The notes beneath the pieces are model-generated. The model did no database searches and was not told the origin of the DNA. It saw only the letters and a program-made list of their open reading frames with translations. From contig JAHQWL010000040.1 in the NCBI GenBank assembly GCA_029856155.1, forward strand, positions 32,001 to 96,000: 64,000 bases of DNA, written 5' to 3'. The position numbers and the translations under genes are program-made. Shown in pieces: positions 21,578 to 33,573 of this stretch; position 1 is the stretch's first letter, and each line of letters opens with the position of its first letter. This DNA is from Promethearchaeia archaeon (GTDB lineage: Archaea > Asgardarchaeota > Lokiarchaeia > Sigyniarchaeales > SOKP01).

Positions 21578-22735
21578 TTAATAACCAGAGGGAGTTTTTG
21601 TTTTAATATCTGATGGAGTCTTTGTGTTAATTGAGGGAGTTTTCTTTCTTATCTTTCTCAATTCTCTTTCAAATGCCTTTTTCTCATTTAGAAATCGTTG
21701 TTGATCTTTTTCTAATTTTTCTCTTTCACGTTTGATAATATTTTTATCACTTTCTAAGTTCGCTTTTTGCTTTTCCAGTTGTCTATATTCATTGTTTAAT
21801 CTGTTAAATTTTTCCTCTAAATTTGGAATTTTGTGATTCAAGGAGTGATATTTATTTTCTAGGGCAGGAATTTTTTTTTCTAATTCTTTTAATCTTGCTT
21901 CTTGTTGATGTCTTCTTTTTTCCAAATCATTTACATTCCTTTCTATCTTATCTTTATATTTTTTTAGATCTGCTTTTTTCTTATCAATTTCACGAGTTTT
22001 TAGGTCAATATCTTGCTTTTTATAACGAGTTTTTTCTCGTTCTTCTTTTAATTTTTTCTTTTCGTCAGAGATTCGATTTTTTTCATCACTAATCTCTCTC
22101 CTTAGACTATTAATTTCCTTATTTAAATTATCCCGATCTTTAGTTAAATCTTTGATTTCGTTTCTTAAATCCATTAACTTAGATTCTAGATCATTAATAG
22201 TTCTTTCTAAAGCATTTTCTCTTCTTTCCATACCAGGAATTTTTGTTTTTATTTCCTTTATTCGTTTTTCTGTCCGTTGTTTTTCCCATTCTAGATTCTT
22301 TTTTTGATCCCCGATATCCTCTCTCAATTTATCTAATTTTTCTTGAAATCTCTCTAATTCAGCATTTTTTTGATCTAATTCCTGATTTTTATTTCTGATT
22401 TTTTCTCTAAATTGTTGTTCTTTAGTTGTTAAATCACTATTCTGTTGTTTTATTTGATTTTTCGTTCTTTCTAACTCATCTCGTAAGTTATCTCGTTGTT
22501 CAAGGAGATATTTAATTTTAAGTTCTTTTTCTTTTCTTTTTTTCTCAAGATCTTCAACATTTTCTTTATAATTTTCAATTTGATTAATAACTTTTTCCCA
22601 TTCACTCTTTTCTTTATCTAACTTGATCCTTTCTTTTTTTAGTTTTTTAAGCAATTTTTTATCCGAAATTGTATCTAGTTTTTCATCTGGTGTTTTTTCT
22701 CGAATTTGATACTTAGGAATTGGTTCGTCGTTCAT
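21578..22735 (-). CDS. Long coiled-coil protein with terminal KTP repeats
   Basis: ~340 aa of E/K/R/L heptads; C-terminus KKTPSINTKTPSDIKTKTPSGY. Confidence 0.8.
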   Translation of the reverse strand: MNDEPIPKYQIREKTPDEKLDTISDKKLLKKLKKERIKLDKEKSEWEKVINQIENYKENVEDLEKKRKEKELKIKYLLEQRDNLRDELERTKNQIKQQNSDLTTKEQQFREKIRNKNQELDQKNAELERFQEKLDKLREDIGDQKKNLEWEKQRTEKRIKEIKTKIPGMERRENALERTINDLESKLMDLRNEIKDLTKDRDNLNKEINSLRREISDEKNRISDEKKKLKEEREKTRYKKQDIDLKTREIDKKKADLKKYKDKIERNVNDLEKRRHQQEARLKELEKKIPALENKYHSLNHKIPNLEEKFNRLNNEYRQLEKQKANLESDKNIIKREREKLEKDQQRFLNEKKAFERELRKIRKKTPSINTKTPSDIKTKTPSGY

Positions 22736-22935
22736 AACGGTTCAATTTTTAATATACTCTATTAATAAATTCATATGAATATTGACTCTAAAGTGTTTGC
22801 TAATCAAGACTTTAATATTAAAATTTTTAATTTTGTTGATTCTATTTATATAGCTTAATTTCTATTATTTTCATATAATCATAGCAAAAAAAGTACAAGA
22901 TTTATATTTAAAATATAATTATTGAGGTTTATTTT

Positions 22936-23361
22936 ATGGGTTTTGATAATGAATTTGATGATGAATTTGATGAACAAGAATTTGATGAAGATTTAGAAGA
23001 ATTAGAAGAAGAGTCTGAAGAAAATACAGAAGAAGATAAAGAAGAACCTTTTGAAAAGATTCCTGAGGAAGAAGTTGAAACAAAAACTCCTACTACTAAA
23101 ATTGTTTCTGGAGGGAAGAAGATTTCAGTATATTTTATGTCTACCATTGGTCCAGGTGAGAAAAAACAAAAACTAACTGTTAATGATGGAAATCTTGTCG
23201 GTGATATTAAAGAAACCGTAGCAAATTTATTTGGTTTAGATCCTGCTGACTTTCATTTATCTTGTGGTGGTATAACAATGGATGAAACTAATTCTTTAAG
23301 CTATTATACTATTTCTGATGGAGATGATATACTTTTAATTCCAGCTAGTACTGCCGGTTAA
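22936..23361 (+). CDS. Ubiquitin-like (beta-grasp) protein 1 with acidic N-terminal tail, ends STAG
   Basis: KLTV...VGDIKE.VA..FGL....FHL..GG..MDE..SL..Y.I.DGD.I.L ubiquitin-fold pattern. Confidence 0.85.
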   Translation: MGFDNEFDDEFDEQEFDEDLEELEEESEENTEEDKEEPFEKIPEEEVETKTPTTKIVSGGKKISVYFMSTIGPGEKKQKLTVNDGNLVGDIKETVANLFGLDPADFHLSCGGITMDETNSLSYYTISDGDDILLIPASTAG

Positions 23362-23406
23362 ATCTTTCTTATAGAAATAAAGGGTTTTAAAATTAAGGTC
23401 GCTTTT

Positions 23407-24204
23407 TTAATTTTTCTCTTTTCGTGAGGGAATTAGAGCAATTTCATCGTCATCATCGATACTATAGTCCTTTATTTGTGAGTTCTCATCTAATAATATC
23501 CCCCCGGAAGATAAGAGAAAATCATGTTGTTCATAATCAAATAATAGTGCAATTTTCTCTTTAACTGCTCTTGCTGATTCATCTGTATCTATTATTATAA
23601 TTTTCGTTTTCTCACCCGGTTCCAATAGTGATCGTATATATACGCGAATTTGATCTTCTATTTCTATAGAACTTTTAGGAGGTGTATAAGTTATTGCACC
23701 ATTAATATTATCTCTGTTTTCCAACATATTTTCGATTAACTCTTTTCTCTCATTTGGGTCAAAATATATCATTTCTCTGATAAACAATATCTTGTCCATT
23801 TTTGATAACCCCAATAAGTTGATTTTATTTAATTCTTCCTGACTTAAGATTGAAAAAATATATTTATCAATAATTGGCATATCCTTATAGGACTCATTTG
23901 ATTCAACATAAGCTTCTATTGAGGGCAAAGCATCAATATAATCTTCAATAATAGTGAAATTGTTCTTTTGAATTGACTTTGGTTTTGCGATATACTTTTT
24001 ATCTTTTATCGTCTTGAAGGGACTACTACTTTTAGACTGTAAAACTGAATAAATTGTACTAGTGGATAAAACAGCAACACTACCAATAGTAAGAACAAGA
24101 AATAATGGCGTATTTTCTATGTGATATAGGAAAAAAAAGACATAGAACAAAATACACACAATATAAAGAGCGAAAACACTTAAAATTCTATAATTTTTTC
24201 TCAT
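23407..24204 (-). CDS. Membrane-anchored protein with C-terminal ubiquitin-like domain
   Basis: Two N-terminal TM segments; C-terminal domain (PGEK...FLLSSGGILLDENSQIKDYSIDDDDEIALIPS) is paralogous to the Ubls; no terminal Gly. Confidence 0.8.
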   Translation of the reverse strand: MRKNYRILSVFALYIVCILFYVFFFLYHIENTPLFLVLTIGSVAVLSTSTIYSVLQSKSSSPFKTIKDKKYIAKPKSIQKNNFTIIEDYIDALPSIEAYVESNESYKDMPIIDKYIFSILSQEELNKINLLGLSKMDKILFIREMIYFDPNERKELIENMLENRDNINGAITYTPPKSSIEIEDQIRVYIRSLLEPGEKTKIIIIDTDESARAVKEKIALLFDYEQHDFLLSSGGILLDENSQIKDYSIDDDDEIALIPSRKEKN

Positions 24205-24289
24205 GATTTTTTAATTAGATTGTTTTCTGAATTTAAAATATTTAATTTAAAATTTAAATGGGATTGGAATAAAATTGGAGTTTTTAATC

Positions 24290-24961
24290 TCATTCACCTT
24301 GAATTGATTTTCTCACATTGAAATATTTTCTAAGATCTAATTTGAATATATTCCTATTTTTTTCTTTTTCAGTTTTTATTAACTTTAAATCTATTAAAAT
24401 ATCTATATATTTTTTAATAGTGCTATGATTCTTTTTTAAACCATCTGCTATCTCTGTGATTTTTAATGCTTTATTTTCAATTCTCATAAATTCTATTATA
24501 TCTTGAACGAGATTCTTTTTCAAATAATAGTGAAACGGGTCAAGTTTTGGATTTGAATCAAATTTGAAGAACATTCTATGATTATTGATTTGTTTTGACC
24601 TAACAAATTGAAATTTTTCTAAGCATGATAAATGCCATAAAGCTTGATTACTGCCAATTTTTAGAACCTTCATTATTTCATTAATATTTGATGGATTTTT
24701 TTTTATAAAATTGAAGATTTCATTTCTTATAGGGTGTTCTATAATATTATTTTTCATTAATTTTGTTCCAGGGATAATAATACGCCGTTTAATTAAATCC
24801 TTTAAAACTAACTCGATTCTATTCTCGTTTATATTAGGGTTGTATCGTACTCTATTATTTATAAAGGAGATAATTTCTCTAATTGAAAAGAAGGTTTTCT
24901 TTTTTAAATACTCCCTTACTAATTCAAGAACAACAGATTCCGTATTATCCAGATGATTCAT
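24290..24961 (-). CDS. Multi winged-helix transcriptional regulator (ArsR-like)
   Basis: R..IF.FI..NP..INEI..L.IG....WHL..LE and a second HTH ITEIA.GLKKNHSTIKKY. Confidence 0.75.
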   Translation of the reverse strand: MNHLDNTESVVLELVREYLKKKTFFSIREIISFINNRVRYNPNINENRIELVLKDLIKRRIIIPGTKLMKNNIIEHPIRNEIFNFIKKNPSNINEIMKVLKIGSNQALWHLSCLEKFQFVRSKQINNHRMFFKFDSNPKLDPFHYYLKKNLVQDIIEFMRIENKALKITEIADGLKKNHSTIKKYIDILIDLKLIKTEKEKNRNIFKLDLRKYFNVRKSIQGE

Positions 24962-25229
24962 AAGTCTTTACTTTTATTCCGTCAATTGATCCGGTTTTTA
25001 TAATTATATACTCTCTCTACAACAACTTTTCATAATTCATATATATATTGATAGGGTTTCATACAATTTATAATATAATTTCTTAAGAATTCTAATTTTC
25101 ACCTTTTTATTTTTGATAAGAACTTGAATACTTCAAAATCATTCCAAAGGGTTTTATAATATCTTTTTAACGCCATTTTATTAAGACTAATAAAAATTTA
25201 AAAATTAAAAATAAATGGAAGTGATATGA

Positions 25230-25562
25230 ATGAGTTTTGATGAATTTGATGAAGATTTAGGAGGAAATGAACCTGTAAAGTCTAAAACTCCTGCTAGTAA
25301 AACTCCCGCTGCAGGAAAGAAATTGACTTTATACTTTATGTCAACAATTGGTCCTGGCGAAAAGAAGGAAAAATTAACTGTAAATGACAGTAATCAAGTA
25401 AGAGACATTAAACAAACATTAGGAAATTTATATGGTCTTGATCCTAATGATTTCCATATTTCTAGTGGAGGGGTGACTATGGATGAAAATAGTTCCCTAA
25501 GCGACTATGATGTAAATGATGGTGACGATATTCTATTAATTCCCGCCAGTACAGCTGGTTAG
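25230..25562 (+). CDS. Ubiquitin-like protein 2, ends STAG
   Basis: Close paralog of Ubl1 (YFMSTIGPGEKK..LTVND; DGDDILLIPASTAG); first gene before E1. Confidence 0.88.
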   Translation: MSFDEFDEDLGGNEPVKSKTPASKTPAAGKKLTLYFMSTIGPGEKKEKLTVNDSNQVRDIKQTLGNLYGLDPNDFHISSGGVTMDENSSLSDYDVNDGDDILLIPASTAG

Positions 25563-25646
25563 ACTTATAAAACTTTCTTCATAAAATATAATATAAGTTA
25601 AGGGCATTTAGCCCTTCAATTTTTTTTATTTTTTTTGTAAAACTTA

Positions 25647-26906
25647 ATGGTGATAATATTGGATAAGGATACAGATTTTTTCGCAAAAGAATTGTCAGTG
25701 GAAGAGAGAGACCTTTATGACCGCCAATTTCGTTTGGAGGGATGGTCCCAGAAATTGGTAAAGAATTCAAGAGTTCTTATAGTTGGGGTTGGAGGTTTAG
25801 GTTGTGAAATTGCTAAAAACTTAGCTATGCTCGGTGTTGGTCACCTTGATCTTATTGATTTAGACATTATTGAACATTCTAATTTAAACCGTCAAGTTCT
25901 TTTTACGGGAGCAAAGATAGGAGAACCTAAGGCAGTTGTTGCAGCTCGAAAGTTGAAAGAAATTAATCCTAACATTATTGTTAAGGGATACCATACCTCT
26001 CTAGAACGTTTGAATCCCACACTATACCAAGCTGCGGATGTTGTTATTGGAGGTCTTGATTCAATGAATGCACGTCTAAATTTAAATGCACAATGTATAA
26101 GATTTAGAAAGCCATTAGTAGATGGAGGAGTATCTGGTTATTATGGTCATGTATACACAGTTTTTCCGTATAAAAATGCTTGTTATGAATGCAATCCATT
26201 GCCAGTAGGGGAAACTGATGAAATGGCTGCTTGTACCGTAGTTGGTATCCCTCGAAAAAGGATCCATTGTGTTTTTAAAGGAGATATGGCATTTAGAGAA
26301 AAATTTGATAGAGATCCAAATCCAAAAAATGTAAATGATATTAAATTCATTCAAAAGGTTGCAAATGAACTAGTAACCAAGTATGATTTCTTTCCTGAAT
26401 ATACTAAGGATGATATTGTGAAAATCATTGATAGACACGATCCTGGTATAATAACTATAAATGCTGTTATTTCTGCATTACAATCACATGAAACCACTAA
26501 AATTCTTCATTGGAAAAAAGGTCATAAAGGATTAGGTGAACCTATTAGAAATTATGTGATCTATAATGCAATTACAATGAAATTTTATCATATTGAAAAA
26601 AAAAGAAATCCAGAATGTTCTCAATGTGGTAAACAGGTTCGTCGAATATCTATAAAATTGAGATCTCAATCACCTTGTATAAATATAATTAAAATATTGG
26701 AGAAAAACGGATTTAAATTAGATCCAGATTCTGAACCGATACTAACTTTACTGGATTTCAATGATATTATGGTAATTGATTTAGAAAAGAATCCAATTGA
26801 AAATCGTCTAAGAAATTACGAATTTATGACGGCAGCAGGGTTTAAAGGTGGAGAAATTTTTGTAACCTTAAAAATAAAACAAAATTTGAATCAGAAAAAG
26901 GTTTAA
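25647..26906 (+). CDS. E1 ubiquitin-like activating enzyme
   Basis: YDRQ, GVGGLG, DLD.IE.SNLNRQ, zinc ligands CYEC/CSQC, candidate catalytic Cys in AACT followed by PR..HC as in Uba3/Uba1-type E1s. Confidence 0.92.
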   Translation: MVIILDKDTDFFAKELSVEERDLYDRQFRLEGWSQKLVKNSRVLIVGVGGLGCEIAKNLAMLGVGHLDLIDLDIIEHSNLNRQVLFTGAKIGEPKAVVAARKLKEINPNIIVKGYHTSLERLNPTLYQAADVVIGGLDSMNARLNLNAQCIRFRKPLVDGGVSGYYGHVYTVFPYKNACYECNPLPVGETDEMAACTVVGIPRKRIHCVFKGDMAFREKFDRDPNPKNVNDIKFIQKVANELVTKYDFFPEYTKDDIVKIIDRHDPGIITINAVISALQSHETTKILHWKKGHKGLGEPIRNYVIYNAITMKFYHIEKKRNPECSQCGKQVRRISIKLRSQSPCINIIKILEKNGFKLDPDSEPILTLLDFNDIMVIDLEKNPIENRLRNYEFMTAAGFKGGEIFVTLKIKQNLNQKKV

Positions 26907-26973
26907 AATTAATATTATAAGAAAAAAACAATTATAAAATAAAAAATTAAAGATAATAATAAGGGTTGAGAAA

Positions 26974-27501
26974 ATGAGTATAAGAAGTAGTCGTATTTCC
27001 CGAGATTTTGCGGGATTAAAGAAAATGCTGAAAGAGGGTAGTCTTGTTCAATTAAACCCATTTAATCCTAAAAGGAAGAGTATTGATCATTTAGCAATTT
27101 CATTTAAAGGACCTAAAGGTACTGTTTATGCAGGTGGTCTTTTTAGGCTAGAATTGAAATTCCCAGCTCAATATCCTAATCAACCTCCTTTTGTTAGATT
27201 TCATACTCCAATTTGGCATCCAAATTTTTGGCCAAAACCATCTGAATATAAAGGACAAAGAAATATTTGTCTAGCGTTAGTAGATCCATCGTTTATAGGT
27301 AAAAAAGGGGGATGGAGTCCTTCAAAAACAGCTGTTACGGTTGTTCAAGCGATAATTGCTATGTTAAATACACGCGGTAAATATGTAAATCCTACTGATG
27401 TTTTCAATAAAAAAGCAGCAATTGAAATGATGAAAAATCCCAAATTTTTCGAGAAAAAAGTAAAAAATCTTGTTAAGAAGTATGCAAACAAAAAATGGTG
27501 A
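26974..27501 (+). CDS. E2 ubiquitin-conjugating enzyme
   Basis: GPKGTVYAGG.F, FP..YP..PP.V.F.TPIWHPN, NICL, WSP. Confidence 0.95.
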   Translation: MSIRSSRISRDFAGLKKMLKEGSLVQLNPFNPKRKSIDHLAISFKGPKGTVYAGGLFRLELKFPAQYPNQPPFVRFHTPIWHPNFWPKPSEYKGQRNICLALVDPSFIGKKGGWSPSKTAVTVVQAIIAMLNTRGKYVNPTDVFNKKAAIEMMKNPKFFEKKVKNLVKKYANKKW

Positions 27502-28325
27502 TTTTATCTATGGACGATAAAGAATCAGCCAAAAATTCAATCAAAGATACAATTAAGAGGAAGATAAAAGAAAAAATAAAACAAGAACTACTAGATGAAA
27601 TCTGTGAAGAACTAGCATTAGAAGAAGACGAATTAACAGAAGAAATTTCTTCAATTCTTACAAAAAAAACTTCTAATAAACCAACTATAAAACTTACAAA
27701 GATCCCTACAGCAGAAATTACAGAAAAAAAAGAGGTTGATATTCAAGAAGAAGAGAAAATCAATAAGGAAATTTATATTTCAGTAAAAGCGATCCTTAAA
27801 ATAGCGAGTCATGCACTTAAATATGCGAATTCTAAGATTCCAAGAGAAAAATGGGTGGAAGTTATAGGACTTTTAGCAGGAAAGATAGAAAAAAACAATG
27901 GTATCTTACATATTGAGGATGCTTATCCAATGGGGCATGGTACAGCTGTCTATGCTGAAATTAAAGATTATAAAAACTATGCTAGAGCATTCCAAGATAT
28001 TAAAAAACAAAGATTATTTATCTGTGGGTGGTATCATTCACACCCGAGCTATGGATGTTTTTTAAGTTCGGAAGATATGGGTACGCAAGCTAGATATCAA
28101 AAACTTTGGGATAAATCCGTTGCTCTTGTCATTGATCCATACCAAATTGATGGAAAATCCACAGGATTTGAAATATATACAGCGGATCTTAGAACTAAAA
28201 CATGGTATCCTTTAGTGTACGGAATTAAGGGATCACTAGATATTAAGATGCTTCCAGAAATTTTAAAATTTATGAATCCAATTATTGAAGGGAAAGCTGT
28301 ATACCTTGAATATGATGAAGATTAA
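27495..28325 (+). CDS. JAMM/MPN+ metalloprotease (Rpn11/CSN5-like)
   Basis: EVIGLL..GWYHSHP.YG..LS..D, VIDP; N-terminal acidic/coiled extension. Confidence 0.93.
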   Translation: MVILSMDDKESAKNSIKDTIKRKIKEKIKQELLDEICEELALEEDELTEEISSILTKKTSNKPTIKLTKIPTAEITEKKEVDIQEEEKINKEIYISVKAILKIASHALKYANSKIPREKWVEVIGLLAGKIEKNNGILHIEDAYPMGHGTAVYAEIKDYKNYARAFQDIKKQRLFICGWYHSHPSYGCFLSSEDMGTQARYQKLWDKSVALVIDPYQIDGKSTGFEIYTADLRTKTWYPLVYGIKGSLDIKMLPEILKFMNPIIEGKAVYLEYDED

Positions 28326-28354
28326 AATATAAGAAATTTGGTGATAATTAAACT

Positions 28355-29542
28355 GTGCCTAAATTTAAAGCTGTCGCAATAACACTGACGATATTTTTAT
28401 TTATAGGCATAATACATGGTGCAATTTTAAATTCTTTTAATGTATTTGTGAGCTGGTTATTAATAGGAATATGGTTAATTTTTTCTTTCAAAGTTTTAAA
28501 AAATATTAAACAATATCGTGAATATCGAAGTCCTCACAATACTGCATTTTTTACCGTTGGTCCTGTTTTTGTAGGTATATTTTATTCCATCTGGGGAAAT
28601 TTTACTGGTTTATTAGGAGAAAATCTTCTTGTAATTTCAGATTTATATTTAAGTTGGTGGAGTATTCTATTTGGATTTCCTTATGTATTGTATGGCTCAA
28701 TATCGTTATATCATTGTTTTAAAAAATATAATGTAATTTATTTTGGGACAAAATCAATAAACGCACGAAAATTTGGCTATATGTTAGGTTTTTCAATTCT
28801 ATTTTTCATAATTGTTTACTGGATAAGTTTTTATTCACTTATCGACTACTATGAATCGTTATTAATACCTCTCCATTTTTTAATAGATCTTAATCTTTTA
28901 TTATTGCTTATTGGTTCTATATTAATAATAATTATTCACGGTTTTTTTGGAACTCGAACCCAATTACCCCGATTGACAAGAGATTATATAACTAGACGTA
29001 CAAGTAGATTGAATGATTTAGCATCACCTAATAGGCGTAGAGAAAGTACCCGTAGTACAATACGATCATCCCCCACACCATCAACTAGAACAGTATCTCG
29101 TACTTCAAGATCAGTTTCTAATTCCTCAAGATCAACTCCTACTGCACATATACAATCAAGGAGTTCTAGAGTCAAAACAACTACTCGAACTACAAGTGGT
29201 AGTAAAACAGGACAGCCATTTAGAAGTAGTAAAAGTTCTATAAAACACATAAATTTTAAGTTATATAGACCAAAAGCTGCGAATTTGTCAGTGGAAGATT
29301 TTAAATGCATATTTTGTTTTAGATTACCCGAATTTCCTAAGGATAAGGGAAGAGGAATAATTTTATGTCCAAATTGTAGATATCCCGCTCATGCGGATGA
29401 ATTCAAAGATTGGCTCAGAAGCTCTCGTCTTTGTTCTAGATGTAATGCTCCTATTCCATCAAGTTATAGGAAAAATCCTAAAATTATTAGTGTAAAAAAT
29501 TATATAGTCATTTATAAGAGCTTATTAAGCAAAAGACTGTAA
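28355..29542 (+). CDS. Multi-pass membrane protein with C-terminal RING-like zinc finger (candidate E3)
   Basis: ~6 TM segments, S/T/R-rich linker, CIFC-x16-CPNC-x4-H-x2-E-x3-W-x6-CSRC. Confidence 0.75.
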   Translation: MPKFKAVAITLTIFLFIGIIHGAILNSFNVFVSWLLIGIWLIFSFKVLKNIKQYREYRSPHNTAFFTVGPVFVGIFYSIWGNFTGLLGENLLVISDLYLSWWSILFGFPYVLYGSISLYHCFKKYNVIYFGTKSINARKFGYMLGFSILFFIIVYWISFYSLIDYYESLLIPLHFLIDLNLLLLLIGSILIIIIHGFFGTRTQLPRLTRDYITRRTSRLNDLASPNRRRESTRSTIRSSPTPSTRTVSRTSRSVSNSSRSTPTAHIQSRSSRVKTTTRTTSGSKTGQPFRSSKSSIKHINFKLYRPKAANLSVEDFKCIFCFRLPEFPKDKGRGIILCPNCRYPAHADEFKDWLRSSRLCSRCNAPIPSSYRKNPKIISVKNYIVIYKSLLSKRL

Positions 29543-29574: not shown

Positions 29575-30519
29575 CTAACTTCTAATTTTCAGTTTTTTTT
29601 TTAATTCCCCTACAGTTGTTTTCAATTCAGCATATACGTTATGTGGATGGATACTTTCAAAGCTTTCAATTTTAAATTTTATTTTAAAATCATCTTCAAG
29701 ATTGGCAAAATCTCTTATAATGAAATTTTTTGCCATTTCTCTGATAACATCTTCAGAAAAAAGAGGTTTTAAATGAGCACTTCTTACTAATTCAGCTTCT
29801 TCAGGTCTTTTTAAAACAGATTGAATTTTTCCACTCATGGAGTCCTCTATTACATCAATGATATCTAAAACATCTATCTTATGATTGGTAAGGTCTTTTA
29901 TCTGAATGATTATCGTTCCAATAGATCTTTGATTGTGAGAAGAAAAGGGTAGGATATTTAATAATTTGTTGAGATCCTCCTCTGAAACGTTAATATCTTT
30001 TCTAGAGTTCACAACTTGTTCTGCATATTCCAATGAAAGCTCTTTAGCGCAAGGACATACTGTCATACCGACTGCACTAGCACTTATAAAATAATTATAA
30101 TCAATATTGCCTGAAATATCTCGACTTGCTTTTACAAAAGAACTAATTTTATAGGATTTTTGAATGATTCTTTCATCATTTTCTCTTACTTGTACGATGA
30201 TTTTTCCCTCTAATTTAACTTCAGCTTTTGAAGTATATGGGTGACGTTCCATCAATCTTTTTACAATTCTATCTCCTACAAGCTCAATTGTAGGAGTCGG
30301 TTTGAAAATTACTTCATTAATGACTTCTTCAATAGTCTCTGAAGTTCGGGACATATGTATACCACGTTGCTCAGCAGGAAGATTGATTAATGCCGAAATT
30401 TTAGGGTAAAACGAGTATCTTTTATTTTCTTGAACAATCTCAACTTTTTTTTCTAATTCTACAATACCAACCTTATCTATGGGAATGTCTATTGCTGAAC
30501 CAGAGTCTTGCAAATCCAA
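29575..30519 (-). CDS. mptA: GTP cyclohydrolase IV (MptA/FolE2 family)
   Basis: RGIHMSR, TVCPC, HNQR, LKRPEE, ESIHPH. Confidence 0.88.
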   Translation of the reverse strand: MDLQDSGSAIDIPIDKVGIVELEKKVEIVQENKRYSFYPKISALINLPAEQRGIHMSRTSETIEEVINEVIFKPTPTIELVGDRIVKRLMERHPYTSKAEVKLEGKIIVQVRENDERIIQKSYKISSFVKASRDISGNIDYNYFISASAVGMTVCPCAKELSLEYAEQVVNSRKDINVSEEDLNKLLNILPFSSHNQRSIGTIIIQIKDLTNHKIDVLDIIDVIEDSMSGKIQSVLKRPEEAELVRSAHLKPLFSEDVIREMAKNFIIRDFANLEDDFKIKFKIESFESIHPHNVYAELKTTVGELKKKLKIRS

Positions 30520-30627
30520 TTTAAATTTGGGAATTTAAAGTCACCAGAATCAAAAATTAATTTTTTAATGTTCTATTTTTTAAAAGGATTAGAAATATTT
30601 AAAATGATTTACAATGTTTATGAATTA

Positions 30628-31797
30628 ATGGCTAATAAATACTTATTCAGCAATTATGCTTTAATTGGAGAGAATTTAGATTTAAAGCAGAATGTAAATT
30701 TAGAAATAGACCAAAATGGAAGAATTACCCATATTTCTTGCGATAATATAAGTGAAAATATCGAAATTCTAGCGAATCATCAGACATTTTTAATGATGCC
30801 AGGTTTTATAAACTCACATGTCCATATTGGAGATAATTTCGCAAAAGAATTGGGTTTTAATAAAGATCTAGGGGAAATTGTTGCCCCACCATTTGGTCTT
30901 AAACATAAATTATTAAGACAAACTCCAAAAGATATTAAAATTAATGGAATTCAAAATGCTGTTCTAGAAATGCTTTCAAATGGTATTACATTTTTTATTG
31001 ATTTTCGAGAGGAAGGAGTAGATGGTTTAAAGCTTTTAAAAACAGCGCTTACTGACAGTTCAATTAATTTTTTAGCTTTAGGACGATTTATGGATGAAAG
31101 TGAAATAGAATCTATATTTGATATAGCAGATGGTGTTGGATTATCTAGTTATAAACAAATTACTTCATCAAATAAAAGATTTATTGTATCTGCTAAACAT
31201 AAATTTAAAAAAATTATTGCTTGCCATTGTGCAGAAAAGATTCGTAGTGAAAATTTAATAGATAAAATATTTAACGATAATATTGTTGATGTCATTATTC
31301 ATGGAACCAAATTTACCAAAAAAGATTTAGAAAAAATAAATAGATATAATAAATCTCTTGTTTTATGTCCTCGTTGTAATGGATATTTTGGAACTGGATT
31401 TCCTCCCATCAGTGAAGTTATTAACTTGAAAATTCCAATATCATTAGGCACAGATAATTTAATGGTAAATAATACTGATTTATTTGAAGAGATAAGATAT
31501 CTTTATCGAATTTCGAGGGTTTTATGCAATTATAATAAAGAGCTTCAAGTTTCCTCCAAAGATTTATTGAAAATGATAACAATTAATGCTGCAAAAAATT
31601 TTAATCTCGAAAAAGAGTTTGGCTCAATTTCAATAGGAAAATTTGCTGATGTTTTTTTAATTGATCTTGGCTCTCCAAATCTTTTTTCTTCTAAATTAGA
31701 TTCTAATAATATATATAATTTAATTACTCAAAGAACAAAATCAGAAAATATAAAAAAGACATTTATTAAAGGAGGGTTAGTATTTGAAAAAAGTTAA
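30628..31797 (+). CDS. Amidohydrolase family protein
   Basis: PGFINSHVH, HCAE, IHG, CPR.N, LGTDN, T.NAA; start taken as the ATG at 30628 (uncertain). Confidence 0.85.
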   Translation: MANKYLFSNYALIGENLDLKQNVNLEIDQNGRITHISCDNISENIEILANHQTFLMMPGFINSHVHIGDNFAKELGFNKDLGEIVAPPFGLKHKLLRQTPKDIKINGIQNAVLEMLSNGITFFIDFREEGVDGLKLLKTALTDSSINFLALGRFMDESEIESIFDIADGVGLSSYKQITSSNKRFIVSAKHKFKKIIACHCAEKIRSENLIDKIFNDNIVDVIIHGTKFTKKDLEKINRYNKSLVLCPRCNGYFGTGFPPISEVINLKIPISLGTDNLMVNNTDLFEEIRYLYRISRVLCNYNKELQVSSKDLLKMITINAAKNFNLEKEFGSISIGKFADVFLIDLGSPNLFSSKLDSNNIYNLITQRTKSENIKKTFIKGGLVFEKS

Positions 31798-32452
31798 CAA
31801 CCCCTATATTATTTTAAACGCTGCAATGACTATAGATGGTAAAATTGCTACTAAAGAAGGTGATTCAGAATTATCGGATAAAGTTGACTGGAAAGAGGTT
31901 CATAAACTTCGAACTCAAGTTGATGCAATAATGGTAGGAAAGGAGACAATTTTAAAAGATAATCCAAAATTGCATATTAAATATTATAACCACAAAGGAT
32001 ATTATAGAATTGTTTTAGATAGCAATTTGACGATACCACTAGAATCGAATGTAATTTCCTTTCAACCAGACATTTATCCTACAATAATTTGCATTACTGA
32101 CAATGTTCCGTTTACCAAACAAAGAGATTATGAAGAAAAAGGAGTAAAAATAATTAGAGCTGGGGATGGTAAACGTGTGGATTTAATAAAGCTTTTACCG
32201 ATCCTAAAAAGTTTGGGAATAAATACTATCTTACTTGAGGGTGGGGGTAATTTGAATTGGAGTTTTATACAAAATAATTTAATTGATGATATAAGGTTAA
32301 CTATAGCGCCCTGGATTGTGGGTGGAAAGGAAGCAACAAGCTTGGTAGAAGGAATAGGATTTGAAGAGATAAAAAGTGCACCTAGATTCGATTTATTTGA
32401 TGTTAAAATCAGAACTTATTATATTACTTTAAGTTATAAAAAGAGAAAGTGA
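31784..32452 (+). CDS. arfC: 2,5-diamino-6-ribosylamino-4(3H)-pyrimidinone 5'-phosphate reductase (RibD C-terminal/Rib7)
   Basis: AMTIDGKIA, VHKLR..DAIMVG..T...DNP.L, EGGG. Confidence 0.85.
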   Translation: MKKVNNPYIILNAAMTIDGKIATKEGDSELSDKVDWKEVHKLRTQVDAIMVGKETILKDNPKLHIKYYNHKGYYRIVLDSNLTIPLESNVISFQPDIYPTIICITDNVPFTKQRDYEEKGVKIIRAGDGKRVDLIKLLPILKSLGINTILLEGGGNLNWSFIQNNLIDDIRLTIAPWIVGGKEATSLVEGIGFEEIKSAPRFDLFDVKIRTYYITLSYKKRK

Positions 32453-33573
32453 TGATTGAAAAGAAAATCAAGCAGTTAATGGGTTTAACTATTAAGAAAT
32501 TAAGTATTAAGGTTAAAGATATAAAAGATCAATTACCTGAAGAAGATCGTTATGTAATTACATATTCTAAAAATTTTACACTTTCTCTTTCAAATTATTG
32601 TATAAATCAGTGTGGATATTGCGTTTATAATTATAAAATTCCGAAATTATGTAGCGATGACAATGTTACTTTACTTAGTAATGAATGCATTGTAAATTTA
32701 ATTCAGAAAGCTCTTCAATACAATTGTAAAGAAGCTCTTATAATGTCTGGAGAATGTCCCGAAAGTTTTCTTGAAGTTAAAAAAGAACTTGAAAAAAGAA
32801 ATTGTTCAAATTATATTGATCTTGTAAAAGATATTAGTAGTAATCTTCTAGATTTTAATATTTTACCCCATACAAATTTAGGATATCTAACTTATAATGA
32901 ATTAAAGAATTTAAAAAAATATAATGCAAGTATGGGATTAATGCTTGAAAGTACAAGTATGAAACTCTTTGAAAAAGGCGAAGTACATGAGTATTCTCCT
33001 GGAAAACTGCCAAAAAAAAGAATAGAGCATATAAATAATGCAGGAAAATTAAAAATTCCATTTACTACAGGTTTATTATTAGGTATTGGAGAAAGTATTG
33101 AAGATATCATTGGAGATTTATACTTAATTAAGGAGATCAATGATGAATATGGGCATATACAAGAAGTAATAATTCAGAATTTCATAAATAAACAAAATAT
33201 CCCTTACCAGCCCAAAAAGTTAATTACTCTTGAAGAAATGCTTAAAATAGTAGGATTTGCTCGAATTATCTTTAAAAACGAAATGGCTATTCAAGTCCCT
33301 CCAAATCTTATAAAGGGTTTTGAAAGAGAGTTTATCGATATGGGAATTGATGATTTTGGCGGAATTTCCCCTATCACATTAGATTATATAAATCCTGACA
33401 ATCAATGGCCTCAAATAGATGAATTAGGTAAAATTTGTAAAGAGAAAGGTTATAATCTCAAAGAGAGACTTCCTATTTATAACAAGTTTATCAATAAAGA
33501 AGGTTTTTGTTCAGAAAATATTAAAAAAGTAATAGATAATATAAACTTAAATGATAAATACTCCGTTTTCTGA
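32449..33573 (+). CDS. cofG: FO synthase subunit CofG
   Basis: ITYSKN, CINQCGYC, PHTN.G, SMGLMLE, IPFTTG.L.GIGE, QVPPNL, GGISP. Confidence 0.92.
   Translation: MMIEKKIKQLMGLTIKKLSIKVKDIKDQLPEEDRYVITYSKNFTLSLSNYCINQCGYCVYNYKIPKLCSDDNVTLLSNECIVNLIQKALQYNCKEALIMSGECPESFLEVKKELEKRNCSNYIDLVKDISSNLLDFNILPHTNLGYLTYNELKNLKKYNASMGLMLESTSMKLFEKGEVHEYSPGKLPKKRIEHINNAGKLKIPFTTGLLLGIGESIEDIIGDLYLIKEINDEYGHIQEVIIQNFINKQNIPYQPKKLITLEEMLKIVGFARIIFKNEMAIQVPPNLIKGFEREFIDMGIDDFGGISPITLDYINPDNQWPQIDELGKICKEKGYNLKERLPIYNKFINKEGFCSENIKKVIDNINLNDKYSVF

Follow-up and report, generated by a model that had tools for sequence, protein, structure and literature searches.

Eukaryotes maintain several insulated pathways for ubiquitin-like modifiers (Ubls), ubiquitin, NEDD8 and SUMO among them, each with an activating enzyme (E1) and a conjugating enzyme (E2) of its own. 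When these pathways split is an open question, and the genome of one Loki-type Asgard archaeon, which already holds three E1/E2 sets, puts it in concrete form: does one of its loci encode a protein-tagging pathway that runs separately from Gly-Gly ubiquitin? The locus lies at positions 21578–29542 of the window, by which we mean the whole 64,000-nucleotide stretch of DNA analyzed (positions 32,001 to 96,000 of contig JAHQWL010000040.1, here C44, in the 4.1-Mb assembly GCA_029856155.1 of a Promethearchaeia archaeon). A sequence-only reading had described nine open reading frames (ORFs) here as a self-contained Ubl conjugation set associated with the membrane, and all nine are present in the ORF list. 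We consider it likely that the locus is a complete, dedicated pathway of Ubl conjugation and deconjugation, of the eukaryote-like archaeal type and built on a tag that ends in Ala-Gly.

Enzymes of the core operon

Five genes on the forward strand make up the core. Ubl2 (25230–25562, 110 amino acids (aa); Pfam ubiquitin, PF00240, 1.6e-6, above the cut-off) is followed by an E1 (25647–26906, 419 aa; ThiF, 5e-61), an E2 (26974–27501, 175 aa; UQ_con, PF00179, 9e-26), a JAMM protease (27495–28325, 276 aa; JAB, 5e-17), and a polytopic membrane protein with a C-terminal zinc finger (28355–29542, 395 aa) that has no Pfam match of its own. The E2 and JAMM genes overlap by 7 nt, and 29 nt separate the JAMM gene from that of the membrane protein. 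With this gene set, the description of the locus as self-contained holds up. So does the statement that genes for components of the endosomal sorting machinery ESCRT and for sulfur transfer are absent from it: no ESCRT or sulfur-carrier gene was found at the locus, and Snf7 (ESCRT-III) matches fall on contigs C8 and C57 and ThiS matches on contigs C102, C31, C17, C26, and C64.

The E1 consists of an adenylation domain, a short loop with the catalytic Cys, two CxxC zinc motifs and a C-terminal ubiquitin-fold domain (residues ~333–411), and is without a rhodanese domain. Its best matches in the PDB are SAE2, UBA1, and UBA3 (1e-38 to 1e-36), with MoeB at 1e-32. Invariant in 19 orthologues are G47xGG, R26/Q27, D138, C179/C182, C196, and C324/C327, as well as the loop A195-C196-T197...H207-C208; the pattern CT..P...HC is the signature of canonical E1 catalytic cysteines. 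In the AlphaFold2 (AF2) model, whose overall predicted local distance difference test score (pLDDT) is 78.8, residues 333–411 form a beta-grasp-like domain at pLDDT 83–96, and Foldseek returns UBA3 as the best match (E 4.6e-27 over 414 columns, the ubiquitin-fold domain included). A C-terminal ubiquitin-fold domain, a feature of canonical E1s, is thus present in the predicted structure. The protein has a single ThiF domain, and no second ThiF gene was found within the locus; because the operon holds no gene for an inactive subunit of the NAE1 or SAE1 kind, the enzyme probably acts as a homodimer.

In the UBC-fold E2, neither H82-P83-N84 nor C99 varies among 21 sequences. Its solved relatives are Ubc15, UBE2R, and UBE2T (1e-17 to 1e-13), and it is not specifically Ubc9-like. 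The spacing from HPN to the Cys exceeds that of Schizosaccharomyces pombe Ubc15 by seven residues, and this insertion is conserved. The JAMM protein is Rpn11-like and carries a Lys/Glu-rich N-terminal extension of ~90 aa; its motif (E122, H181-S-H183, S191, and D194) is intact and invariant in 20 orthologues, and its best match in the PDB is the Caldiarchaeum Rpn11-like protein 6fjv (1.5e-16), followed by Rpn11 and CSN5.

An Ala-Gly modifier

Ubl1 (22936–23361, forward strand, 141 aa; Pfam ubiquitin, 2.2e-4, below the cut-off), Ubl2, and a third, unlinked copy all end in ...LLIPASTAG directly before the stop codon. The terminus is Ala-Gly rather than Gly-Gly in these three copies and in all 120 nearest clusters, and has only the last Gly in common with that of ubiquitin. 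Ubl1 and Ubl2 are 68% identical. Both begin with an acidic N-terminal tail, which in Ubl1 is long and contains one TKTP and in Ubl2 is followed by SKTP-x-SKTP and then by the beta-grasp domain. When a profile of the tag family was compared with the PDB, ubiquitin and FAT10 were among the best 60 solved relatives listed.

Orthologues of Ubl1 occur in three relatives (G002, G013, and G022). Ubl2 has 856 homologues; IPAS[TS]AG is present in 120 of the 120 nearest cluster representatives, 110 of which end at the Gly, the other ten having 2–7 further residues. IP-[AVHFS]-S-[TIR]-A-G is retained across classes by every tag orthologue. The Gly is the last residue in many, and others continue for 1–18 residues beyond it (R, M, K, KA, YLV, KCIC, etc.), variable tails that form the pattern of a precursor cut back to its Gly. 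Since the tags of the source genome end at the Gly itself, they would need no maturation. The prediction that the modifiers end in a single Gly was therefore correct, and the Ala-Gly end is conserved across classes.

The third tag, also of 110 aa and ending in STAG, is encoded on another contig (C24:30900–31232) and is ~88% identical to Ubl2 at the DNA level. Its neighbors are small zinc-ribbon proteins and an 876-aa protein with an Rce1-like CAAX protease domain. Relatives additionally encode ~580-aa proteins that end in a STAG-type Ubl domain (L027:2213–3964, L028:9691–11448, and L101:11072–12814), closing with STAG plus a tail or with SRAG. These are encoded beside the operon and the coiled-coil gene described below, and join the Ubl to a HerA-like ATPase or to a VWA domain with a Cdc48_N-like start; they could be precursors, or carriers that are conjugated whole.

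A single terminal Gly after a small residue presumably resembles the end of mature UFM1, and the sequence-only reading had called the pathway UFMylation-like. Such a system, or a sulfur-carrier system of the SAMP/Urm1 kind, would combine the single-Gly tag with an activator of the UBA5/UBA4 type. The enzymes point elsewhere. Against UBA5 and Uba4 in the PDB the E1 scores only 4e-16 to 2e-17 (UBA5, 4e-16), compared with 1e-38 for SAE2/UBA1; it is UBA3/SAE2-like and has no rhodanese domain. The E2 is a canonical UBC protein (PF00179) with HPN...Cys, not UFC1. The tag belongs with ubiquitin, and no UFM1, Urm1, or ThiS family was found for it in Pfam. ThiS genes and a MoeB-size ThiF lie elsewhere in the genome, and the locus includes an E2. 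We therefore drop the UFMylation-like label and regard a UFM1-like or sulfur-carrier system as extremely improbable.

A membrane protein with a RING-like finger

The last gene of the operon encodes six predicted transmembrane (TM) helices (residues 4–197), a disordered Ser/Thr/Arg-rich linker (200–298), and a folded C-terminal domain with the finger C318-x2-C321-x16-C338-x2-C341-x4-H346-x2-E349-x3-W353-x6-C360-x2-C363. C318, C321, C338, C341, H346, W353, C360, and C363 are invariant in 17 orthologues, and E349 nearly so. The finger is thus of the form C4-H-(E)-C2, with the spacing of C4HC3 fingers and Glu as the sixth ligand; the spacing C4-H-x2-[C to E]-x3-W is one that we take to resemble RING-CH/PHD-type fingers in particular. 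The AF2 model has an overall pLDDT of 73, with the six helices at 75–95. Residues 309–395 match RING/U-box folds (Foldseek and VIA-align; 3lrq, Z 7.8; Ring1b, Z 7.1; RNF165, TM-score 0.77), and further matches include the HRD1 RING and RNF38, many of them solved with their E2.

At the level of sequence families, zf-RING_2 was matched by five of the 17 orthologues (best 1.3e-4) and Prok-RING_1 by four, all below threshold; searches of Pfam and NCBIfam with the membrane protein itself gave nothing useful. Its homologues, of which 120 are listed out of 291, are all unnamed or called "hypothetical protein" and have no Pfam domain. The fold matches (Z 6–7.8) and the invariant C4-H-C2 and Trp stand against only seven clear ligands and Pfam scores below the cut-off; we read the finger as a probably real but divergent RING of the kind found in ubiquitin ligases (E3s). 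By the positive-inside rule, the basic N-terminus and very basic linker would place it in the cytoplasm. The protein, with its six helices and RING-fold domain, probably serves as the candidate E3 of the pathway, and the polytopic E3 proposed earlier stands in this sense. Predicting complexes of the E2 with the RING domain (residues 300–395), both supplied as alignments, gave 0.35, 0.07, and 0.13, the mark being 0.32, an outcome that speaks neither for nor against the pairing. One relative has a stand-alone 137-aa ORF (L029:6990–7403) that repeats the RING-like domain only; it adjoins the full membrane RING gene, which has a masked stretch there.

A polytopic protein with a cytoplasmic RING has the layout of Hrd1, Doa10, and MARCH, and both parts are present in the model, the cytoplasmic placement being predicted. 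This layout had suggested quality control akin to endoplasmic-reticulum-associated degradation (ERAD), in which misfolded proteins, membrane-bound or secreted, would be tagged by the membrane RING and then extracted and degraded by the proteasome. The HRD1 RING among the fold matches agrees with that idea, and a membrane-anchored Ubl-domain protein encoded at the locus presumably recalls ERAD factors of the HERP/TMUB type. Beyond the membrane RING, however, the ERAD-like claim found no support. None of the adjacent genes, to which the test was confined, belongs to a Cdc48, proteasome, or Derlin/rhomboid family; the TM bundle matches neither Hrd1 nor Derlin reliably, its match to a chain of the HRD1–SEL1L complex (Z 6.7) being within the noise for helical bundles; and the only candidate substrate is a soluble coiled-coil protein. 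We consider an ERAD-like role distinctly unlikely.

The [ST]KTP motif and candidate acceptors

That coiled-coil protein (21578–22735, reverse strand, 385 aa) has only coiled-coil-type matches in Pfam, NCBIfam, and PADLOC. It carries TKTP at residues 371 and 379, in its C-terminal tail, and EKTP near its N-terminus. Among the 6309 ORFs of at least 60 aa in the genome, [ST]KTP occurs 35 times against 24 expected, and just three ORFs, the coiled-coil protein and both 110-aa tags, have at least two copies. Orthologues of the coiled-coil protein retain C-terminal [ST]K[TV]P repeats, and [ST]KTP is conserved in the tag N-tails across classes. The coiled-coil gene adjoins the Ubl gene, divergently oriented, in relatives up to the level of class, and lies next to the operon in loci of the source family and of families f2, f3, f4, f7, and f28. 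The shared, doubled motif makes the coiled-coil protein and the tag N-tails the best candidates for acceptor or docking sites, and the coiled-coil protein a candidate substrate or scaffold. For the idea in the sequence-only reading that substrates are encoded in cis, which is unproven, this motif is the one pointer, and it leads to the coiled-coil protein.

A bolder proposal, which we put forward as speculation and think rather unlikely, is that the Ala-Gly tag is joined site-specifically to the lysine of [ST]KTP, as in SUMOylation. Chains could then form on the tag N-tail, the C-tail of the coiled-coil protein would be modified in the same way, and the membrane RING would build a tagged coiled-coil scaffold at the membrane. 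Such a pathway of Asgard archaea would run alongside Gly-Gly ubiquitin, insulated from it, and di-Gly remnant proteomics would not see it.

The motif also bears on whether the membrane protein is an E3 at all. It might instead be a substrate, a receptor, or unrelated, with the E2 picking its targets directly through [ST]KTP in the manner of Ubc9, which recognizes the SUMO consensus site without an E3. A finger short of one canonical ligand and under the Pfam thresholds would fit this, as would a SUMO-like flexible tag N-tail with a conserved Lys motif that recurs on the coiled-coil neighbor, and the seven-residue insertion by the active site of the E2 could form a recognition surface. We still hold the alternative to be unlikely. 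Residues 309–395 are predicted to adopt a RING/U-box fold in which the Trp at the usual E2-contact position is invariant, the membrane-RING gene is a constant last member of the operon across classes, and direct recognition by the E2 is compatible with a RING E3.

Conservation across the phylum and expression

The order Ubl-E1-E2-JAMM-membrane RING, with the membrane-RING gene always last, is kept within the genus. Beyond it, three further families of the order, additional families of the class, and other classes share the arrangement; in those other classes the E1 is only 45–48% identical. Every related locus retrieved that was long enough has the five-gene core in synteny, and the arrangement is for this reason far more than chance. 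Within the phylum, 188 of 400 genomes carry an E1 orthologue (E ≤ 1e-70); within the genus, 48 of 53 do. One of the carriers is G171, a genome of the same order that is a single contig of 6.0 Mb. The conservation of the neighborhood across Asgard genomes, which had been named as one check on the prediction, thus extends from the genus to other classes. By the same token, the claim that the locus differs from known Asgard operons is unproven: its layout is the common Asgard form, and its features, not special to the source locus, are usual for a system that is spread across the phylum.

This distribution also bears on the possibility of an antiviral defense module of the bacterial Bil/CBASS-Cap2 kind (CBASS, cyclic oligonucleotide-based antiphage signaling system), which would tag virus proteins. 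The gene content (Ubl, E1, E2, and JAB) is that of Bil-type systems, the E1 has superfamily-level PADLOC matches to CBASS E1-E2 models (3e-18), and the relatives' fusions of STAG-type Ubl domains to HerA-like ATPase or VWA proteins could be taken in the same sense. Those matches are, however, far weaker than the matches to eukaryotic E1s (1e-38); in PADLOC the JAB reaches 2e-4 and the Ubls and RING protein have no match. The operon moreover sits in a stable, syntenic housekeeping neighborhood, in about half of the phylum sampled, and no mobile-element or defense genes stand beside it. A defense function is very improbable.

A soil metatranscriptome library contains contigs 90–97% identical to the coiled-coil gene, Ubl1, Ubl2, E2, and JAMM, and one contig crosses the JAMM/membrane-RING junction. 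Since a relative is the source of these RNA contigs, and carried-over DNA may account for them, they give a weak hint only that the operon is expressed.

Parallel tagging systems in the same genome

Two further E1/E2 sets lie on other contigs. Contig C54 carries a compact Caldiarchaeum-like di-Gly operon (L017:8618–12526) for a RING-like protein (76 aa), a TM protein (86 aa), a Ubl that ends in VIGGS (85 aa), an E2-like protein, an E1 lacking a ubiquitin-fold domain (294 aa), and a JAB protein (166 aa). It stands directly beside three Roc-type GTPases with longin-like N-termini. Contig C35 (L016:202–10176) encodes a 527-aa E1 that matches the STAG E1 in architecture, Cys loop and ubiquitin-fold domain included, together with an E2 sharing 41% identity with that of the STAG set. 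The C35 genes do not form an operon, a methyltransferase and an HAD hydrolase lying between them and a 2127-aa ORF adjacent; the pair is conserved in nearly all relatives searched. Contig C52 adds a Ubl ending in AGGF. The genome thus carries three parallel E1/E2 sets, and the view that the STAG locus is separate from di-Gly ubiquitin is upheld by the C54 operon, the C52 Ubl, and the C35 pair.

Accessory genes, regulation, and neighborhood

TM-Ubl, the membrane-anchored Ubl-domain protein (23407–24204, reverse strand, 265 aa; Pfam ubiquitin, 1.9e-5 over residues 195–257, just below the cut-off), has two N-terminal hydrophobic helices, a linker, and a C-terminal Ubl domain ending in IPSRKEKN. 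Because it lacks the terminal Gly and the Lys of the KTP motif, where it reads TYTPP, its most likely role is that of an adaptor or decoy at the membrane that cannot itself be conjugated. Of the 135 genomes of the family, 92 have it, as a rule ~2 kb from the E1 but in some cases far away or unlinked. A winged helix-turn-helix (wHTH) protein (24290–24961, reverse strand, 223 aa; HTH_5, 2.2e-7; HrcA_DNA-bdg, 2.5e-5) is encoded divergently from Ubl2. It has at least two winged-helix domains and also gives ArsR/SdpR-type matches; its gene is syntenic with TM-Ubl in G002, G013, and G022, and it is most likely a candidate local regulator. The module of Ubl1, TM-Ubl, and wHTH is younger than the core operon. 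One marine-sediment DNA contig joins position 22534 to 24232 with six foreign letters, skipping Ubl1 and TM-Ubl; it has only 24 letters on one side, and may represent another organism, a strain without the accessory module, or a chimera.

Upstream of Ubl2 lies a conserved block, CTTCAAAATCATTCCAAAGGGTTTTATAATATC (25132–25165, forward strand), that contains the TATA-like TTTTATAATA and is a putative promoter. Ubl2 and the unlinked third tag have this block of ~35 bp in common (CTTCAAAATCATTCCAA-GGGTTTTATAATATC), and their flanking intergenic DNA has otherwise diverged. A search of the whole window for a second copy returned the one occurrence only, so no shared operator is evident for Ubl1 or the divergent genes. 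Between Ubl2 and the E1, the G+C-rich hairpin AAGGGC-ATTTA-GCCCTT followed by a T-run (25600–25625, forward strand), a match to the terminator-like consensus only, is the only strong terminator-like site within the operon; it is a possible attenuator, which would give an excess of tag over enzymes.

The genes flanking the locus encode an NTP-transferase, a PHP-domain protein, and a FolE2-type GTP cyclohydrolase. Downstream, at 29575–33573, the FolE2/MptA-type GTP cyclohydrolase (Pfam, 2.9e-59) begins a cofactor-biosynthesis-like set unrelated to the Ubl locus, in which, by eye, an amidohydrolase, a RibD C-terminal-like reductase, and a radical-SAM FO-synthase-like protein follow.

Discussion

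Reasoning from homology, we infer the biochemical steps of the STAG pathway, together with its topology, E3, and substrates, as follows. The UBA3/SAE2-type E1, probably a homodimer, would adenylate the C-terminal Gly of Ubl1, Ubl2, or the third copy, hold the tag as a thioester on Cys196, and recruit the E2 through its C-terminal ubiquitin-fold domain. The tag would then move to Cys99 of the UBC-type E2. At the membrane, the cytoplasmic RING-like finger would dock the charged E2 and promote transfer to lysines of nearby proteins; an acceptor or docking role of [ST]KTP would allow both chain formation and a dedicated substrate. The Rpn11-like JAMM protease would take the tag off again and, in relatives whose tags have 1–18-residue tails, would also expose the Gly.

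Several observations weigh against this reading. The finger has seven, not eight, clear zinc ligands, with position 6 a Glu and, in one orthologue, an Ala; it falls under every Pfam cut-off, and its fold Z-scores of 6–8 are middling. For the TM domain, searches of the PDB with Foldseek, of a wide set with VIA-align, and of the ESM Atlas by features and shape returned only generic helical bundles. Acceptance of an Ala-Gly end by the E1, the individual steps, and the substrates are things that we infer, and the KTP motif could just as well serve phosphorylation or docking. Finally, only part of one family has Ubl1, TM-Ubl, and wHTH, and there they are not always linked; given this restricted distribution, they are not core to the mechanism.

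The STAG set combines a UBA3-like E1 with a ubiquitin-fold domain, a terminus of its own, and a membrane-embedded RING, and it does so across several Asgard classes. Several parallel tagging pathways probably existed before eukaryotes, and this conservation suggests that their diversification, as well as tagging at the membrane, may predate eukaryotes. The tag also has a practical consequence. Its ~50 residues between the last Lys and the C-terminus contain no Lys or Arg, so the piece left on a modified lysine after trypsin digestion would be very large. STAG conjugates would for that reason escape standard Gly-Gly remnant proteomics, and looking for "ubiquitylation" in archaea calls for another protease or an intact-tag approach.

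Comparison with known systems

The E1 resembles UBA3 and SAE2/UBA2 in its adenylation domain, CT..P...HC Cys loop, pair of zinc CxxC motifs, and ubiquitin-fold domain, and differs from them in the much shorter catalytic-Cys domain and in having no inactive-subunit gene in the operon. By analogy, the flexible tag N-tail with a short conserved Lys motif that also occurs on a candidate substrate may recall SUMO-2/3, whereas the motif is [ST]KTP rather than psi-K-x-E and the E2 is not specifically Ubc9-like. The membrane protein shares with Hrd1, with the RING-CH proteins Doa10 and MARCH, and with TM RING-H2 proteins of the RNF/ATL type a polytopic domain and a predicted cytoplasmic RING-type finger. 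In contrast to these proteins, to which no sequence homology was detected, it has Glu in place of one ligand and an unmatched TM bundle, and its finger is C-terminal to a disordered basic linker of ~100 residues.

Within the Asgard archaea, ubiquitin clusters have been catalogued together with ESCRT (Hatano et al. 2022, PMC9192718; UEV-Vps23 preprint, 10.1101/2023.07.25.550441), and in Lokiarchaeota the ubiquitin and ESCRT genes are described, in the available text of PMC9192718, as lying in two separate regions. The STAG locus has in common with those clusters the eukaryote-like set of ubiquitin, E1, E2, RING, and deubiquitinase. As far as the available parts of PMC9192718 and 10.1101/2023.07.25.550441 go, they treat di-Gly (pro-)ubiquitin and a soluble RING E3. 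In the searchable literature we found no mention of the Ala-Gly tag, the KTP motif, a RING embedded in the membrane, or one genome with three parallel E1/E2 sets, and no description of a UBA3-like E1 with a ubiquitin-fold domain in a STAG paralogue; an earlier mention in subscription journals is possible.

Archaeal operons for ubiquitin, E1, E2, RING, and Rpn11 are themselves established, and that of Caldiarchaeum subterraneum, which encodes Rpn11, ubiquitin, E2-like, E1-like, and small RING finger proteins, has been reconstituted in vitro (PMC5654768, PMC6043591). The STAG locus resembles it in its set of modifier, E1, E2, RING, and Rpn11-like JAMM, the JAMM having 6fjv as its best solved relative, and the tags of relatives are, like Caldiarchaeum ubiquitin (CsUb), encoded as precursors with C-terminal tails. 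It differs in that the STAG tag, with Ala-Gly rather than Gly-Gly at its end, bears [ST]KTP in an acidic N-tail that is conserved, and in that the STAG E1 has 419 aa and a ubiquitin-fold domain, compared with the 294 aa of the Caldiarchaeum-like C54 E1 of the same genome. The RING, too, is not a small soluble protein, as it is in Caldiarchaeum, but the C-terminal domain of a six-helix membrane protein.

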